IMG/VR virus record: IMGVR_UViG_2534681999_000017
Direction: 5' to 3' (one strand)
DNA length: 36,916 bases
Source: a virus
Taxonomy: Duplodnaviria > Heunggongvirae > Uroviricota > Caudoviricetes
A model generated the notes under the pieces. That model made no database searches, was not told the origin of the DNA, and was given only the letters and a program-made list of their open reading frames with translations. Shown here one piece after another: positions 1 through 26,340 of this stretch (its first letter is position 1; the number at the start of each line of letters is the position of its first letter). The translations under genes were made by a program, and so were the position numbers.

Positions 1-1932
1 AAGCGGAGGTAATACACCGTAAGAGCTGGAAAAACCGTGCAGAAGTGGAACTGGCCACACTAACGTGGGTGGACTGGTATAACAATCGACGATTGCTGGG
101 AAGGCTGGGCCATACTCCTCCGGCAGAAGCAGAAAAAGCTTATTATGCTTCCATCGGAAACGATGATCTGGCAGCCTGAGTTCACAGATAAAACACTCTC
201 CAGGAAACCCGGGGCGGTTCAGCAGATTATTCCCTGCATCCCCTGTCAGGGTGACACCCTGCGGCAGAGAGGAAACCGGCCAGTAAAGCCCCATGACATA
301 CTGGTTTGCCACCAGGTCGCCAGGTACTTTAAAACGACAACTGATTAAACCACCATTTTTCAGCAGTTCAGCACCAGTACCGGCATCATGATCCAGATAC
401 CAGGATGATTTACCTGTTTCCTTGGTCAGTTTCATTGCCTTACCACCTGTGCCTCCTGCATCACTGATAATTTCAGCTTTACCGCCAGCCGGCTCCCAGC
501 CCTGGGCTTTCAGATTTCCTTCTGACTCACTGACACGATAAGACAGCAGTGTTGTGGTTACTGCTTCAGTTTCTGAAGGTGACGGCACTGGTGCTTCAGT
601 TTCAGAAGATGGAACATCGGCTTTTACTGTGGTTCGCCCCGCATGAGTCAGAACTGCCGTGGCCAGACGGTCGGAAATAATCCCACGACGTGCCCATGAA
701 CTGAAATGGCTGGCCCGGTCCGCAGATGTCCAGGTGGCGGCACTGTTACGCCACGTTGAGCCGTAATAACCAATGGATTCAATATCCGGGTCTTCTGCCG
801 GATTGTTGGTGGGTACATTCGCGTCATTTTCATCTGTCATTAATGGAACGAAATGAATGTTTTTATCTGTTTTGTTTTTGTAGCCGCCATAGATTGCCTG
901 GTATGCCGGTTCATTTTTCTGTTTCCAGAAATACGTGGTATCGCCACAAATCCACGGAACGCCAGCAGCACTGCCACCGGTACACTGTTCCGCCTGTTCA
1001 GCCAGGTCTGCGCGGAATTTTTCCACCATCGCCAGAAACAGCGCGGAATGCTCCGTCGGCTTCGCATCAATATCAAACTCGCCCTGCATCCACACCACAG
1101 CAAGCAGGCGGTTTTTCGGGTTCTTCGCCAGTGCCGCTTTTGTCCGGCTGATTAAGTCCTTATACAGCGGCTTATCCACACCCCAGCGGGCTGAGTCCTC
1201 TGAAGCACCCGTGCTGTCACTGTACGTGCCGTCAGCACCCGCCGTGAATGCAGAACCACCACGGCAGCAGGGAACCAGCAGAATCCCCGCATCTGCCGGA
1301 ATAAACGGCAGCAGTTTTTTGGCAATGTGAAGCCCCTGACCCACGGTGCCATATTGCCCTTTAGCCACATCCGCTTTCGGGTGATTTTTTCCACTCATAT
1401 CCTGCACATCATGCAGACAGTGGTCGGCCAGAATGATGTCGTTATACTGACAGGCTTTACCTCCCGGCGTGACTGTACTGCGACGGGCTAACTGCATAAT
1501 ACGCGGTTCGGGGCGGTCATATGTCTCCGGCAGTGGCAGACCTTCACCGTAAGCCATACCGTTTGACTGACCAGCAAGAACCACCACGTAATACCAGGAA
1601 GGGGAGCTGGAAGCAGTTTCATTTCCTGACGGACGGGTATGTGTTTCAGCATTATCCCAGTCTGACGGTTCAGCAGTACCGGCAACATCAGCACTTAACG
1701 GAATGACCGCACCAATACCCGCTCCGGTAATTTCCACACTCGGATCACCGGATACTGGCCTTACCCACAGGCAATCCCGTGTATTAAAACTGATGAGACA
1801 GTCAGCAAATGTCATTCCTCCTTTTGTTTCGGCCGGAGGAAAGGGAGCCTCAAGAAATGCCGCTGTACCACCGGAAACTTTAACAGTAAAGTTTCCGGGC
1901 ATTGATGATAGTTGAACCCATTTGGACGTCAT
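1..1932 (-). CDS. nanS: NanS-type sialate O-acetylesterase (SGNH/SASA hydrolase) with N- and C-terminal extensions; 3' end unresolved, frame open to window start
   Basis: ATG at 1932 with AGGAACAGG 9 nt upstream and an in-frame stop at 1963-1965; 644 codons without a stop. Contains VVLAGQSNGMAYGEGLPLP, HDVQDM, QYGTVGQGLHIAKKLLPFIP, LVPCCRGGSAFTAG, WMQGEFD, CGDTTYFWK, SHFSSWARRGIISDRL, co-linear with E. coli NanS/YjhS as recalled. Confidence 0.8.
   Translation of the reverse strand, partial: MTSKWVQLSSMPGNFTVKVSGGTAAFLEAPFPPAETKGGMTFADCLISFNTRDCLWVRPVSGDPSVEITGAGIGAVIPLSADVAGTAEPSDWDNAETHTRPSGNETASSSPSWYYVVVLAGQSNGMAYGEGLPLPETYDRPEPRIMQLARRSTVTPGGKACQYNDIILADHCLHDVQDMSGKNHPKADVAKGQYGTVGQGLHIAKKLLPFIPADAGILLVPCCRGGSAFTAGADGTYSDSTGASEDSARWGVDKPLYKDLISRTKAALAKNPKNRLLAVVWMQGEFDIDAKPTEHSALFLAMVEKFRADLAEQAEQCTGGSAAGVPWICGDTTYFWKQKNEPAYQAIYGGYKNKTDKNIHFVPLMTDENDANVPTNNPAEDPDIESIGYYGSTWRNSAATWTSADRASHFSSWARRGIISDRLATAVLTHAGRTTVKADVPSSETEAPVPSPSETEAVTTTLLSYRVSESEGNLKAQGWEPAGGKAEIISDAGGTGGKAMKLTKETGKSSWYLDHDAGTGAELLKNGGLISCRFKVPGDLVANQYVMGLYWPVSSLPQGVTLTGDAGNNLLNRPGFPGECFICELRLPDHRFRWKHNKLFLLLPEEYGPAFPAIVDCYTSPPTLVWPVPLLHGFSSSYGVLPPL
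3..179 (+). mobile_element. IS3-family (rve/DDE integrase-core) transposase, C-terminal fragment cut by the window edge
   Basis: Frame ending at TGA 177-179 reads AEVIHRKSWKNRAEVELATLTWVDWYNNRRLLGRLGHTPPAEAEKAYYASIGNDDLAA, a typical IS3-family OrfB C-terminus (W-x-DWYNN-RR ... PP-AE-E-YY). Confidence 0.45.
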
Positions 1933-2031
1933 AATAATCAGCCTGTTCCTGAATAAACTGAATTATCATATCCACAGACCGATAAACGCCATTTTGCGTT
2001 AATTCAGTAAAGGCCCAACAAAGAGAGCGTC

Positions 2032-2592
2032 TTATTTTTCCGAAACGCTCGCAGGATAATAACGATAAAGGGTTGAAAGGCCGATATCAAAAATAAGTGC
2101 CACCTGTCTTCGACTGACACCCCCGGCCAGTAAACGCCCGACCTGCTCGTATTGTTCCTGCGTGAGACGACGGGGTCTGCCGCCGGTTCGTCCCCTTTCA
2201 CGGGCAGCTGCAAGACCAGCCCGTGTCCGTTCGACAATTAATTCACGCTCCATTTCTGCCAGCGCACCCATTATGTGAAAAAAGAAGCGCCCCATGGGGG
2301 TTGACGTATCAATGTTGTCAGTAAGACTACGAAAATTTATCCCCTGTTGCTGTAATTCATCTGTCAGCGCAACAAGGTGGCGCATACTGCGCCCCAGCCT
2401 GTCCAGTTTCCAGACCATCAGTGTGTCACCGGGTTTTAGTTTCTTCAGTGCCCGCTTCAGTCCCGGCCGCTGTGTCGTTTTACCACTCATTTTATCTTCA
2501 AAAATCTGCTCACATCCTGCACATTCCAGCGCATTTCTTTGTAAACCTGTGTTCTGGTCATTTGTTGATACGCGTATATAGCCAATCAGCAT
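2032..2592 (-). CDS. gin: Serine DNA invertase, Gin/Pin/Cin/Hin family
   Basis: 186 aa, MLIGYIRVSTNDQNTGLQRNALECAGCEQIFEDK...VWKLDRLGRSM...GINFRSLTDNIDTSTPMGRFFFHIMGALAEMERELIVERT; near-identical motif order to Mu Gin and e14 Pin. Confidence 0.93.
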   Translation of the reverse strand: MLIGYIRVSTNDQNTGLQRNALECAGCEQIFEDKMSGKTTQRPGLKRALKKLKPGDTLMVWKLDRLGRSMRHLVALTDELQQQGINFRSLTDNIDTSTPMGRFFFHIMGALAEMERELIVERTRAGLAAARERGRTGGRPRRLTQEQYEQVGRLLAGGVSRRQVALIFDIGLSTLYRYYPASVSEK

Positions 2593-2647
2593 GTATTTAC
2601 CTTCCTTAAAAAGAGGTGGAAAGGCCTTTTAAAGCAGATATACGGCA

Positions 2648-2673
2648 TCCCTGAAACCTTCGGTTTACGGGAT
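2648..2673. other. gix-like crossover site A (gin-proximal), 26 bp imperfect dyad
   Basis: TCCCTGAAACCT TC GGTTTACGGGAT; the inner half (TCCCGTAAACC on the other strand) is shared with site B and matches the Hin/Gin half-site pattern ending AAACC. Confidence 0.6.
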
Positions 2674-2815
2674 ACTGTAAACAGGGCCGCGAATGCCCTG
2701 CCATCGAACGGAGCGGCTGTTGCAGCGAATAAACTCGCCACTCCAAGAAATATTAATGGTGTCCCATTTGACGGAACGCAGGATATAAATATTACATCGG
2801 GGATGACGCAGTCTG
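2663..2815. repeat. Inverted repeat arm 1 of the invertible segment (about 150 bp), encoding the conserved start of the alternative fibre tip
   Basis: High identity to the reverse complement of 3886-4034, for example CTCGCCACTCCAAGAAATATTAATGGTGTCCCATTTGACGGAACGC versus CTCGCCACCCCAAGAAATATTAATGGTGTTCCTTTTGACGGAACGC. Confidence 0.8.
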
Positions 2816-3018
2816 TGGCTGACTCACGTTATGTTCAAAGCATTCGAAGAGGTTCAAGGTCAACGATTGGAATGCAATATAATATTTTTGAGGTTCCTGA
2901 CGGATGCGTACTTACAGGGCTTGATGTCGCTGGTGATGGTAATGCAACGGTAACCGCATATTATCGACCTGTTCAGTTTCTGATAGATGGTTCGTGGAAA
3001 ACAGCTTCCAGCGCATAA
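2674..3018 (+). CDS. Alternative tail-fibre C-terminal tip (Sv'-like exon), no start of its own, silent in this orientation
   Basis: In-frame reading from site A gives ...GLRDTVNRAANALPSNGAAVAANKLATPRNINGVPFDGTQDINITSGMTQSVADSRYVQ...YYRPVQFLIDGSWKTASSA, homologous to the S C-terminus (…ATPRNINGVPFDGTLDINITSGMTQS…YYRPVQIYINNAWRTVSSV). Confidence 0.7.
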   Translation, partial: TVNRAANALPSNGAAVAANKLATPRNINGVPFDGTQDINITSGMTQSVADSRYVQSIRRGSRSTIGMQYNIFEVPDGCVLTGLDVAGDGNATVTAYYRPVQFLIDGSWKTASSA

Positions 3019-3097
3019 AAGTGCAGTAGTTCAAAAAACAGATTATCTGAATAAATATATGATGATTTTGTCTTTTCAACAAAAACAAGGTGAAATA

Positions 3098-3619
3098 ATG
3101 GAGCTTATTAACGTAAAACGATATTACCCGGAACACAAACCCTATGGTGAGGATGTTCAGTATTTCCAGAGTGAGGACGGAAGGGATTTTTATGAATCTA
3201 TCCCGCTTTTCACAAAGAAATACAAACTCTGTATTTCGCCTGTAACGGGTATTATCTGCTCTGTTGCTGAAGATGTCTCTGCTTTATATCCGGCAGGTTT
3301 TACTGTTGTTGAAGTGGACGAACTGCCGGAAGGTGTGAATATTGACGGTAACTGGCAGTTTTCTGATGGCCTGATATCAAAGGTGACGGTAAACTGGAAG
3401 ACGGTTGCTGAAAAGCGCCGCTCATCGCTGCTCCAGGAAGCCAACGAAACTGTGGATGACTGGAAAACGGAATTAAAACTGGACATGATTAGCGATGAAA
3501 ATAAATTACAGCTGACGCGCTGGATGGCGTATATCCGACAGCTTAAAGAAATGCACTTTAATGATATTGCCAGTGAGGGGCATTACCAGGCGATTCCCTG
3601 GCCGGAAAAACCGGAATAA
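3098..3619 (+). CDS. Tail-fibre assembly chaperone (Mu U / Tfa family)
   Basis: ATG at 3098 with AAGGTGA upstream; MELINVKRYYPEHKPYGEDVQYFQSEDGRDFYES...LTRWMAYIRQLKEMHFNDIA...PWPEKPE; the ORF-track start at 2987 is an upstream over-extension. Confidence 0.8.
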   Translation: MELINVKRYYPEHKPYGEDVQYFQSEDGRDFYESIPLFTKKYKLCISPVTGIICSVAEDVSALYPAGFTVVEVDELPEGVNIDGNWQFSDGLISKVTVNWKTVAEKRRSSLLQEANETVDDWKTELKLDMISDENKLQLTRWMAYIRQLKEMHFNDIASEGHYQAIPWPEKPE

Positions 3620-3653
3620 TTCAGAGGGTGCATTCAGCACCCTTTTCTGTGGT

Positions 3654-4565
3654 TTACACTGAACTTACCGTTCTCCAGGCATTATTAATATAAATCTGAA
3701 CCGGGCGATAATAGACCCCACCGATATTGTCCGCAGACCGGGAGCCGGTTTCCTGCACGTTAATTCCGGAAAGCATACAACCGGAAGGTGCGCTGTAATT
3801 CCATGACATTTCATTGCCTCCGGGTGAATGATAGCTCTGTGCTCCAAGCTGAACATTCTGTACATACCGGCCATCTGCGGTTGACTGCGTCATTCCTGAC
3901 GTGATGTTGATATCCAGCGTTCCGTCAAAAGGAACACCATTAATATTTCTTGGGGTGGCGAGTCTGTTTGCTGCCACGGCGGTTCCACCCGATGGCAGGG
4001 CATCAGCAGCCTTATTTACCGTTTCCCGTAAACCAACGTTATCGATAAAAGCGCCTTTATCCGGAATGTCTGCGCCGTTCTGCTCCCTGCGCAGGTAACG
4101 GTTATCACCTTCGCTTTTGCTGTAAACATCCAGATTATTACGGGCGGTTCCCGCATTCTCCAGGTCGGCAAGGTTCTGATCCTTCGCCAGAGCATTAACG
4201 TCACCGGGACCAAGACTGTTTTTTGTGGCAAGCGCCCCAAGACCAAGATAACCACGGGCAAGACGCTGGGCTTCCGCACCGGCATCAGCAATTTCTTTCA
4301 GGTTGTTTTTCCGGGAAAAGGCATTCGCAGCGATAATGGCTTTAATGGACAGCGTAAGCTGGTTTAACTGCGCCTTATCCGGCTGAATACTGGCTTCAGC
4401 CAGAATATTCAGCAGTTCGGCCTGGAGAATATTCAGCCAGTCCTGACCAATCCAGCTGATACCTTTTTGTCCGTCACCTTCGGTAAACCAGGTGGTGGTA
4501 TTACTCTGCGCCGGTGCCAGCGCAGGCATATTCGCCACGCCGGAATTATTATCAACATGGAACAT
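3654..4565 (-). CDS. Tail fibre protein (Mu S-like), constant part fused to the currently expressed tip
   Basis: True start MFHVDNNSGVANMPALAPAQ at 4565 (ATG overlaps the upstream stop as TAATG); C-terminus ...GVYYRPVQIYINNAWRTVSSV is a P2 H / Mu S-type fibre tip. Confidence 0.85.
   Translation of the reverse strand: MFHVDNNSGVANMPALAPAQSNTTTWFTEGDGQKGISWIGQDWLNILQAELLNILAEASIQPDKAQLNQLTLSIKAIIAANAFSRKNNLKEIADAGAEAQRLARGYLGLGALATKNSLGPGDVNALAKDQNLADLENAGTARNNLDVYSKSEGDNRYLRREQNGADIPDKGAFIDNVGLRETVNKAADALPSGGTAVAANRLATPRNINGVPFDGTLDINITSGMTQSTADGRYVQNVQLGAQSYHSPGGNEMSWNYSAPSGCMLSGINVQETGSRSADNIGGVYYRPVQIYINNAWRTVSSV
3886..4034. repeat. Inverted repeat arm 2 of the invertible segment
   Basis: Reverse complement of this stretch aligns with 2663-2815; homology starts exactly at the shared gix half-site. 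Confidence 0.8.
4023..4048. other. gix-like crossover site B, inside the S tail-fibre coding sequence
   Basis: TTCCCGTAAACC AA CGTTATCGATAA, compared with the Mu gixL sequence as recalled (TTCCTGTAAACC GA GGTTTTGGATAA); inverted relative to site A. Confidence 0.6.
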
Positions 4566-5125
4566 TAAATATTCTCCTCTTCGTGACTGTTTGCATATAC
4601 GTAAATAAACGTCTGCCATGCAGGCTTATAACGGTTCAGAATACATTCCAGCGCACCGCCTTCATAAATACGCAGCGGCGTGAGAATATCATCCAGCACA
4701 TTCATATTCCGGTAGCCGGTTTCACTGTTAATCGTGACAATACTGACCCACTGTGAATCCGGTGATGGCTGAATATCTATTTCATAACCAAACTCTGCCG
4801 CAAACCGGATATAAAATTCACGGTTAAGAGAGGGTTTCATCCGGTATTTATTCCCGGCATAACGCTGACGCTCCTGAATGGTTGCGCCGGTCATATCACA
4901 TTCCGGTAACCCCAGATAACGCTCCCAGTCTTCCAGCAGCAGACGGGATGAATCAGGAAAACGTTCTGCCAGCATCTGGTTACCGGTCCAGGAAACACGC
5001 TCCGTGGAATGACTGAGGCCCAGGCACAAAGCCGCAAGAACGGATGACGGCCGCTTATCCCATGCCAGCCCGTCAGGCAGCAACTGCAACAGGGCGCGCT
5101 GATGCGGGGTCAGGGTTACAGCCAT
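4565..5125 (-). CDS. Baseplate/tail protein, Mu gp48-like (P2 gpI-like)
   Basis: 186 aa ORF in the syntenic position immediately upstream of S; translationally coupled. Confidence 0.7.
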   Translation of the reverse strand: MAVTLTPHQRALLQLLPDGLAWDKRPSSVLAALCLGLSHSTERVSWTGNQMLAERFPDSSRLLLEDWERYLGLPECDMTGATIQERQRYAGNKYRMKPSLNREFYIRFAAEFGYEIDIQPSPDSQWVSIVTINSETGYRNMNVLDDILTPLRIYEGGALECILNRYKPAWQTFIYVYANSHEEENI

Positions 5126-17404: not shown

Positions 17405-17950
17405 GGAGGTATCCTTTAAAGGAGGGTTTAAGGCGTTATAAAGGTCATCCGCCGACAGTGCGGCGACAGGATTCATGCCGGTCAGACCGGGGTCACCGGT
17501 AATAGCCAGCATCCGAAGTTCGACAGGTTCGCCGGTGCTCTCGTCATAGCCAATCACCGGTGAAAACCAGGGGAATTCGTTATTACGCAGATGTTCAAGG
17601 GCCGGAGGGTTCCACTTCGGGCGCACCTCGAAACCTCGCTCTTCACTGAAGCGAAAATTCTCCGGTGAGGCCATCACAAAACCGGCAGCCGGTGCCGGAT
17701 GTCCCTCAATCAGGGTCTGGTGGTTGTAGTCAATTTTCACCGGCTGATTGAGCGCCACAACACGGGAGACCATGCGCTCAACGGCTGCATGGTTGATCAG
17801 CCAGCCTTCCGCCGGTTTTTCCGGGCGACCGTCACGGGCCTTTACCCGACCGGCTGGCATGATCTGACACCAGTCACCGTCCCCGTCTGCGGACAGGCTG
17901 ATGGCATTCAGAATGGCATAAGCAAGTTTGGGCGTGTTTTTCGTCTTCAT
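16826..17950 (-). CDS. Head maturation protease fused to scaffold (Mu I-like)
   Basis: 374 aa; N-terminal protease-like half and coiled-coil Ala/Leu/Thr-rich C-terminal half. Confidence 0.75.
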   Translation of the reverse strand: MKTKNTPKLAYAILNAISLSADGDGDWCQIMPAGRVKARDGRPEKPAEGWLINHAAVERMVSRVVALNQPVKIDYNHQTLIEGHPAPAAGFVMASPENFRFSEERGFEVRPKWNPPALEHLRNNEFPWFSPVIGYDESTGEPVELRMLAITGDPGLTGMNPVAALSADDLYNALNPPLKDTSMNEQLRQLLTALGLTVADGDEFTPELGTAALSALTGIKTRADAHDNLKTQVASLSAELETAKGTPAGGIIDLTKYVPVETYNALRTEYVALSAQHGSTTLEQVLDKAESEGRIFKSERGYLEQLGGQIGVAALSAQLDARQPVAALTSLQTDTVTVPDKKTATAALSAEDIAAAKLLGKTEAEFLKMKEEMQ

Positions 17951-18126
17951 TCCGGCAGCATAGGCCGGGAATTTTCAGGGCGGGTTTTGCGGGATTTCAG
18001 GAAGTGCTTCCAGGGGAAAAATACAAAGGCGCTTCACGCAGATTTTAAAGCCCGTTAAATACAGGTTAGAAAATCACGACACGCGCCTGAAGGGGGTAAG
18101 GTAATGCATTTGCATACCTTAAACAA
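17951..18126 (-). promoter_or_regulatory. Candidate late promoter region upstream of the I-like gene
   Basis: 176 bp gap in an otherwise tightly coupled operon, at the position of Mu P_I; contains CCTTACCCCCT and a TAAAAT element on the transcribed strand. Confidence 0.4.
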
Positions 18127-25914: not shown

Positions 25915-26340
25915 TCAGAAAAGTGGCGGTTGCGTTCTTGCCAGATGCAGACGGCGCTGTTCGCGTATGACGGTATAAATCTGGGTTTCTGACATCCGGT
26001 AATGGCGGCGAAGGGATTCAATTTTCTCGCCCCGGTCCCAGCGCGAAAATATCTCATTGTTTCGCAGCTCGGCAAAGAGAGATTCCCCGACCGGCAGGTA
26101 ATAACCCCGTCCGCCCATATAGGCTGCCTGAGCCGCAGCCACCTTGCGTGCCAGTTTACCGGCCAGTACCGGCTCAATCCCCTGACGCTGAAGTTCTGCG
26201 CCGGTGACTTCAACCAGTTCTGACAGGGTCCGCGGCCAGTTCTTTTTGAGAACATCATCAGGGATGTCATCAAGGCGGTCGATAAGGGCGTGCAGTTGCT
26301 CACTGTCACCACCAAACATGCTCATCTGAGTTTCTGCCAT
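25915..26340 (-). CDS. Mor/C-family transcriptional activator (sole family member in window)
   Basis: 141 aa, C-terminal HTH …YRMSETQIYTVIREQRRL… resembling Mu Mor/C as recalled; immediately upstream of the lysis and late genes. Confidence 0.75.
   Translation of the reverse strand: MAETQMSMFGGDSEQLHALIDRLDDIPDDVLKKNWPRTLSELVEVTGAELQRQGIEPVLAGKLARKVAAAQAAYMGGRGYYLPVGESLFAELRNNEIFSRWDRGEKIESLRRHYRMSETQIYTVIREQRRLHLARTQPPLF

Follow-up and report, generated by a model that had tools for sequence, protein, structure and literature searches.

At the locus described here, a gene for a Mu S-like tail fibre, a single gene for a tail-fibre assembly chaperone (tfa), a silent second fibre tip and a DNA invertase gene lie side by side in a stretch of 36,916 nucleotides, the whole of which is referred to as the window. 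The window is evidently a nearly complete Mu-like prophage. Positions 2000-4700 are 100% identical to the chromosomes of many O157:H7, O26, O103 and O145 strains. Two Stx phage records contain regions labelled “inserted Mu-like phage” to which they are 94% identical, and the prophage is therefore assigned to the Sp18 type of Escherichia coli O157 Sakai (EHEC). According to an earlier report (PMC2669165), Sp18 is predicted to be intact and is packaged efficiently, and the integration sites of related O157 Mu-like prophages are strain-specific (PMC7430833).

The late genes occupy the minus strand and include homologues of Mu gp45, gp46 and gp47 (Baseplate_J) and of gp48/YmfQ. The Mu-like baseplate genes gp44-gp48 are present, and com/mom lie downstream in relatives. 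The Mu gp48/YmfQ-like baseplate wedge protein, which docks the fibre, is encoded at 4565-5125 (minus strand; PF10076, 2e-22). A transcription activator of the Mor/C family, presumably the activator of the late genes, is encoded at 25915-26340 (minus strand; PF08765, 2.8e-32). The gap at 17951-18126, upstream of the gene at 16826-17950, holds a near-palindrome, AAGGTATGCAAATGCATTACCTT, with a C-run after it, which may be one of the sites of this activator.

The gene located 3′ of the invertase gene (window positions 1-1932, minus strand) codes for a SASA (sialate-O-acetylesterase-like) and DUF6645 protein, 679 aa long in relatives. It is cut at approximately position 220 by a remnant of an IS3-family transposase (IS fragment 45-179, plus strand); in O26 RM10386 the locus is intact, and positions 220-5000 of the window match it at 99.98% identity. 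This gene follows the invertase gene, or tfa in the invertase-less loci described below, in every E. coli-type relative seen. It is absent from the Salmonella loci L105 and L106 and was not seen in the Citrobacter braakii locus L004. Its product could be an accessory tail protein that modifies the receptor.

The invertible segment

The serine DNA invertase, of the Gin/Pin/Cin/Hin type, is encoded at 2032-2592 on the minus strand. It matches the Pfam families Resolvase (1.4e-51) and HTH_7 (1.7e-14) and is annotated by PGAP as a “recombinase family protein”. As is expected of a host-range switch, its gene adjoins the invertible segment. This segment of 1376 bp (2660-4035) contains the expressed tip on the minus strand, the silent tip on the plus strand and one Caudo_TAP gene.

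The window carries only two crossover sites. The left site is gix-like and was recognized by reading the sequence at 2647-2673 (plus strand), where it takes the form ATCCCTGAAACC TT C GGTTTACGGGAT. Its core TT lies at 2659-2660 and its exact inner half-site at 2662-2673, with one extra base between them. The right site (4023-4048, minus strand), which reads TTATCGATAACG TT GGTTTACGGGAA as its reverse complement, is located within the fibre ORF at a GLRETV motif. Both sites share the core TT when read from the outside inwards, the left being 27 bp in length and not 26; the gap between AAACC and GGTTT is three nucleotides (TTC) in the left site versus two (TT) in the right. Upon inversion, the extra base shifts to the other site. 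The 27-bp site is evidently active, since the flipped genomes described below exactly fit an exchange at the TT. The crossover sites are found at the outer ends of a 185-nt inverted repeat (2653-2837 and 3859-4043, 77% complementary), which starts both tip-encoding regions.

The silent fibre C-terminus, tip T2, is seen in translation at 2661-3018 (plus strand). Its frame continues from the left crossover site until a stop codon at 3018, and its 5′ end is without a start codon. It consists of approximately 50 conserved residues encoded by the inverted repeat and a variable tip domain of approximately 70 residues. The expressed variable C-terminus, tip T1, is translated from 3654-4035 (minus strand) and is a homologue of the Mu S tip. 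It is joined to the constant N-terminal part, a homologue of Mu S/gp49 that was placed at 4036-4562 (minus strand) by alignment with Mu S and by the PGAP start at 4562. In the window state, the expressed fibre gene spans 3654-4562 (minus strand) and codes for 303 aa. Only the first 175 residues belong to the constant part proper; the remaining Mu S-aligned residues are encoded within the invertible segment.

Fibre residues 1-197 correspond to Mu S 2-191 (E 2.5e-48), in an alignment that reaches the GL(Q/R)ETVN crossover motif shared by both (NLGLQETVN in Mu), and residues 228-301, in T1, align with the last approximately 70 residues of Mu S (435-503 in 5yvq_A). The silent tip T2 likewise matches the Mu S tip (436-504 in 5yvq_A; E 8.5e-9). 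The fibre is of the Mu S (gp49) type, with both the N-terminal baseplate-docking region and the C-terminal tip homologous. Mu S and U are co-crystallised in 5yvq, where both tips and the Tfa of the window have their homologues. Of 81 aligned positions, T1 and T2 have 34 in common, and their last approximately 20 residues are conserved (YYRPVQ..I...W.T.SS). The fibre is thus a Mu S minus its central ~240 residues, and its variable parts are little more than the Tfa-bound tip domain.

As a test of inversion, positions 2660-4035 were inverted in silico and the predicted junction on the invertase side was searched for in complete E. coli genomes. The flipped junction is present in 28 genomes (best match 100% identity) and the window orientation in 181. 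In one flipped genome (L003), the constant part and the other tip form a 295-aa fibre, which is followed by the co-oriented tfa. Both orientations yield in-frame fibres with different C-termini, of 303 aa in the window and 295 aa when flipped, and the segment evidently inverts in nature. Among the IMG/VR loci, 14 have tfa convergent with the fibre versus four or five that are flipped. The tfa-convergent orientation is the majority state, in counts that are confounded because O157 and other STEC lineages descend clonally. The bias of 181 versus 28 could be caused by a bias of inversion, by the orientation of the infecting phage or by clonal inheritance. With its invertase, paired sites and two orientations, the locus is classed with the invertible tail-fibre switches of the Gin/Cin/Pin/Hin type.

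The chaperone gene and its upstream spacer

The chaperone gene occupies 3098-3619 on the plus strand and codes for a Tfa of 173 aa, a homologue of Mu U and the sole Tfa-like ORF of the window. It matches Caudo_TAP (PF02413) with an E-value of 6.9e-19 (68.7 bits versus a curated cut-off of 22.1) and Mu U (5yvq_B) with an E-value of 1.1e-15, and PGAP calls identical coordinates in identical genomes. It sits between the silent tip and the fibre, co-oriented with the former and convergent with the latter. An upstream ATG at 2987 would extend the open frame to 210 aa (2987-3619, plus strand), with its beginning overlapping, in a different frame, the end of the silent tip. The likely start is the ATG at 3098, which is preceded by an RBS and is also the PGAP start.

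The original prediction, made from the letters of the sequence, was that the segment has only one chaperone gene and that this gene is co-oriented with the silent tip. Pfam, the comparison with Mu U, PGAP and an HMM search have all confirmed its position and identity. The search was performed with an HMM built from seven diverse Tfa proteins and with phmmer using eight Tfa seeds, against all stop-to-stop frames in the six frames of the 36.9 kb. No second Tfa-like ORF was detected across the whole window (3e-85 for the tfa ORF, 0.37 for the next best). The prediction had been staked on the lack of another chaperone on the minus strand of the segment, and none was recovered there by the Tfa HMM, the eight seeds or Pfam; the minus-strand ORFs at 2912-3136 and 3190-3486 match no Pfam family.

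It had also been stated that Mu-type segments normally carry one chaperone for each variable part. This rule is obeyed in Mu, in Fels-2 and in the sister prophage L048. A Mu G segment in the strict sense has a chaperone downstream of each variable part, which is not the arrangement of the window or of at least 20 related loci. None of the papers examined comments on the single chaperone. The expected consequence was that the fibre would have no co-transcribed chaperone in the window orientation and would acquire one after inversion, and the geometry of the flipped genome L003 matches this expectation.

Between the silent tip and tfa there is an AT-rich spacer of 79 nt (3019-3097, plus strand), which is a candidate for an orientation-independent promoter. 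It contains a -10-like element, TATGAT, at 3058-3063 and the RBS AAGGTGA. In ten single-Tfa loci, the distance from the stop of the tip to the ATG of tfa is 51-121 nt. In classical or non-invertible relatives the gap is -1 to 16 nt, with two exceptions of 59 nt in which the start calls may be off. Five unrelated types of spacer were distinguished, and each has a hexamer that matches TATAAT in at least five of six positions and ends 30-35 nt before the ATG. These are TATGAT in the window, TATAAT in C. braakii, and TATCAT, TATTAT and AATAAT/TATATT in the other three types. Composition-preserving shuffles of four independent types gave a joint probability of ~7.5e-5, or ~5e-4 after correction for the choice of the search interval, which was picked post hoc.

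A scan for the sigma-70 consensus upstream of the window tfa gave no match of 9/12 or better, and scans of the regions upstream of tfa in L044, L057 and L004 (C. braakii) gave matches within the spacer in C. braakii only. No -35 element is conserved among the spacers, and the window-type spacer has TATGAT only. This absence would fit a promoter that is weak or dependent on an activator. The promoter is proposed from the position of the -10-like element and the length of the spacer. A shared late-promoter or C-activator motif was also sought by comparing the tfa spacer with intergenic regions of the prophage by eye, and nothing convincing emerged. Short palindromes precede the -10-like element, namely CAGATTATCTG in the window (3041-3051) and CTGAAATATGCGTTATTTCAG in spacers of the L044 type (approximately 4928-4949 in L044). 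These may be binding sites for a regulator.

At the other end of tfa, a GC-rich hairpin with a terminator-like match (3623-3645) separates the convergent stops of tfa and the fibre. Its stem is kept with a different loop in L057, and in C. braakii its place is taken by a perfect A-tract/T-tract hairpin, a classic bidirectional terminator. It is likely a bidirectional terminator that closes the late operon in either orientation. Since the segment flips, such a terminator would be required anyway.

Related loci and the locked lineage

Many different tips accompany the constant part of the fibre in E. coli, Citrobacter and Salmonella; a scan of GTDB genomes with the fibre returned only two close relatives. 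The recurrent layout is tip A, convergent tfa, tip B and then the invertase, and it exists with several combinations of tips. The pairs that accompany a single Tfa in E. coli are T1/T2, T1/T4 and T3/T5′. Tips T4 and T1 are found in L044-L047 with a Tfa 98% identical to that of the window, and T3 and T5′ in L041 and L042 with a Tfa only 60% identical to it. Wherever an E. coli-group locus of the IMG/VR survey included an invertase and was covered by enough sequence, exactly one Tfa was present; the diverged L084, with two, is the only exception. The layout is also present in non-STEC commensal, mouse and clinical strains.

The C. braakii locus (L004, 6816-9220) has long variable parts, a 229-aa Tfa of the DUF4376 type, three crossover sites and three tips for its one Tfa. 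The Salmonella locus L106 (5326-7700) also has three crossover sites, three tips and one DUF4376-type Tfa, which is 76% identical to that of C. braakii. With three sites and three tips, the cassettes of these two relatives amount to a mini-shufflon.

A layout with two Tfa genes occurs in the same prophage family, in L048 and L084, and also in Fels-2. In L048 (E. coli GCA_045618685), a 529-aa fibre is followed by a 177-aa Tfa, then by a convergent 175-aa Tfa with a 322-aa tip, and then by the invertase. The comparison with related Mu-like prophages that had been proposed as a check has hence returned both arrangements: a second chaperone in L048, L084 and Fels-2, and a single Tfa in the E. coli group, the Citrobacter and the Salmonella relatives. 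The layout with one Tfa is conserved and not the product of a one-off loss. What had been presented as an oddity of one locus is instead an architecture conserved across a prophage family.

A set of nine loci (L040, L043, L057-59, L063, L070, L074 and L081) has neither invertase nor tip B and shares one common deletion junction. In this locked lineage, an intact tfa of 173 codons is permanently convergent with the fibre, and a short remnant of a T2-like tip is kept. The locked loci carry three different alleles of tip A and different alleles of tfa. The deletion junction is present in seven complete E. coli genomes. In the four complete locked genomes that were inspected (L101-L104), the element adjoins bcsA, flgL/laf, citF or xdhA, four different chromosomal sites, and truncation is seen in three of the flanking genes. 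The four different sites point to repeated integration of the locked lineage. A Mu-type element that has inserted four or more times since the deletion was most probably passed on through infectious virions with working fibres, although free virions are not in principle required for it to reach different sites.

Between the locked loci, the pairwise dN/dS of tfa is 0.11-0.23. Its dS is 0.1-0.5 versus a divergence of approximately 1-3% in the flanks (judged by eye in the alignment). Since the divergence of tfa is far above that of its flanks, the alleles were imported by recombination. The low dN/dS was for that reason set aside as proof of selection in the locked state.

One chaperone for exchangeable tips

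The original prediction offered three alternatives for a fibre without a downstream chaperone: one tip folds unaided, the chaperone is expressed separately, or one host-range state is defective. Separate expression is favoured by the long spacer, the -10-like element and the locked lineage, from which expression is deduced; the other two alternatives are disfavoured. We consider it probable that one shared Tfa serves both tips and is expressed independently of the orientation of the segment. The locus would be a minimal host-range switch of the Mu G type, in which the invertase flips the 1376-bp cassette. This would join either T1 or T2, short homologous tips of approximately 70-80 aa, to the constant part of the Mu S-like fibre, and one generic Tfa would fold either of them. 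Initiation signals specific to tfa in the long upstream spacer would allow the chaperone to be made in either orientation, and these signals would travel with the gene inside the cassette. Both convergent transcripts would be halted at the hairpin that separates tfa from the opposite tip. We infer a promoter in the spacer, along with its timing and regulation.

The distribution of tips and chaperones bears on whether one Tfa may act on both tips, as we infer it does. The Tfa that follows T2 in the window is 98% identical to the one that follows T4 in L044, and in each case T1 lies on the opposite side; alleles of the L041 type lie opposite T3 or T1 variants. A strict pairing of Tfa allele and tip was tried and is rejected on either side of the gene, with the window Tfa accompanying T1 plus either T2 or T4 and the L041 type accompanying T3 or T1 variants. 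A tip type with the signature …YYK.IQKRVNG..MTI.G is co-oriented with and directly upstream of tfa in C. braakii and convergent with it in Salmonella L106. The two E. coli types of Tfa that were compared are 71% identical in the N-terminal half and 46% in the C-terminal part. The N-terminal half is, reportedly from work of North et al. in 2019, the tip-binding domain. Mu U and U′ are also said to bind the host surface (North and Davidson 2021, as cited in PMC11915804); if this were so here, that function would stay the same on inversion with a Tfa common to both tips.

The gene order alone would equally fit a system in which T1 and the other tfa-convergent tips fold without Tfa, the chaperone being needed only by the co-oriented tip and made only after inversion. 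The sharing of only 34 of 81 aligned positions between T1 and T2 also speaks for this reading. Both tips are nevertheless homologues of the Mu S tip domain to which the chaperone is bound. In the two-Tfa relative L048, a T1-like tip has its own Tfa after a gap of 1 nt, and in C. braakii such a tip lies immediately upstream of Tfa. T1-like tips in non-invertible relatives are also directly followed by a Tfa; such tips are therefore normally clients of a chaperone. The same tip type has moreover been found on either side of Tfa, and in the locked lineage tfa has stayed intact despite the loss of the co-oriented tip. Unaided folding of T1 is thus regarded as unlikely. It is very unlikely that the window orientation is an OFF state with fibre-less or non-infectious particles, which would turn inversion into an on/off switch and not one of host range. 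It is true that, with the segment this way round, tfa is out of reach of late-operon transcription and that no strong promoter consensus was found upstream of the gene. The same orientation is, however, the majority state in genomes, and an invertase-less lineage has become fixed in its geometry, spread to four insertion sites and diversified in its tip and Tfa alleles. Both observations speak against a defective state. Every T1 allele is moreover complete, with most of the variation falling in a loop-like stretch (…SWNYSAPSG / SWSYGAPSG / SWEFRTPSG…), whereas the C-terminal strands are kept.

A further possibility is that the chaperone of the convergent tip is supplied in trans by the Tfa of a co-resident prophage, for instance one of the lambdoid prophages of STEC. 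STEC prophages encode Tfa genes for side-tail fibres, and the Tfa proteins of different phages can cross-complement, both of which would make such a supply feasible. Many prophages are indeed present in STEC genomes (PMC2669165). This supply would require the co-induction of another prophage, whereas the layout is also found in non-STEC strains, in Citrobacter and in Salmonella, and it would leave the long spacer and the conserved -10-like element unexplained. Its probability is accordingly put lowest, at very little. A single shared Tfa with its own initiation signals is preferred to these readings.

We lean slightly towards a broader proposal, that these loci form a distinct class of invertible cassette. 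Its members would have interchangeable minimal tips and one generic Tfa that is expressed from its own promoter either way, so that switching lies wholly in a tip of 60-80 aa. The class would be widespread in Mu-like prophages of STEC, Citrobacter and Salmonella and would remain functional after the loss of the invertase. If this is true, a Tfa need not match a fibre tip one-to-one, nor be co-transcribed with it, and a single Tfa could service a family of short receptor-binding tips. For fibre engineering, a swap of only ~70 residues with one chaperone kept would retarget a phage or tailocin. The proposal also bears on the annotation of host-range modules in STEC prophages and on whether Tfa proteins that are retained on the fibre contribute to the choice of receptor. 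The natural lineage of locked orientation makes the question of a shared chaperone directly testable.

With its one Tfa, the cassette of the window is unlike those of Mu, P1, e14 and Fels-2. The G segment of phage Mu (Sc-Sv-U / U′-S′v, Gin) spans approximately 3 kb. It resembles the window in its homologous fibre N-terminus and tip, its homologous Tfa (Mu U), a Gin-type invertase immediately beside the segment, a gix-like half-site (GGTTTACGGGA) and Mu-like baseplate genes. The window differs in that its segment is 1.4 kb long, has one Tfa in place of U and U′ with a 79-nt spacer before it, and includes an extra base in one site. Its variable part is the tip only, with no counterpart to Mu S ~192-434. 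Mu has two sets of fibre and fibre-assembly genes (PMC11915804), and inversion has been confirmed in a Mu prophage of EPEC (Goldberg et al. 2014; PMC4272514).

The P segment of e14 in E. coli K-12 (stfP-tfaP / tfaE-stfE, pinE) also has a YmfQ/gp48-type gene upstream of the fibre, a Pin-type invertase and an invertible fibre C-terminus (PMC12529663, PMC4272514). It carries two tfa genes versus the one of the window, tfaP and tfaE both being located inside the segment (PMC12529663). L048 and Fels-2 share with the window the same baseplate and fibre backbone, the invertase and a T1-like tip ending in …YYRPVQKYINGTWYNVASV; they differ in their long variable parts and in having two convergent Tfa genes, each 1-15 nt past its own tip. 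The Min system of p15B and a three-repeat P2-like locus of EPEC (PMC4272514) resemble the three-site, three-tip cassettes of the Citrobacter and Salmonella relatives, and the window, with two crossover sites only, differs from both.
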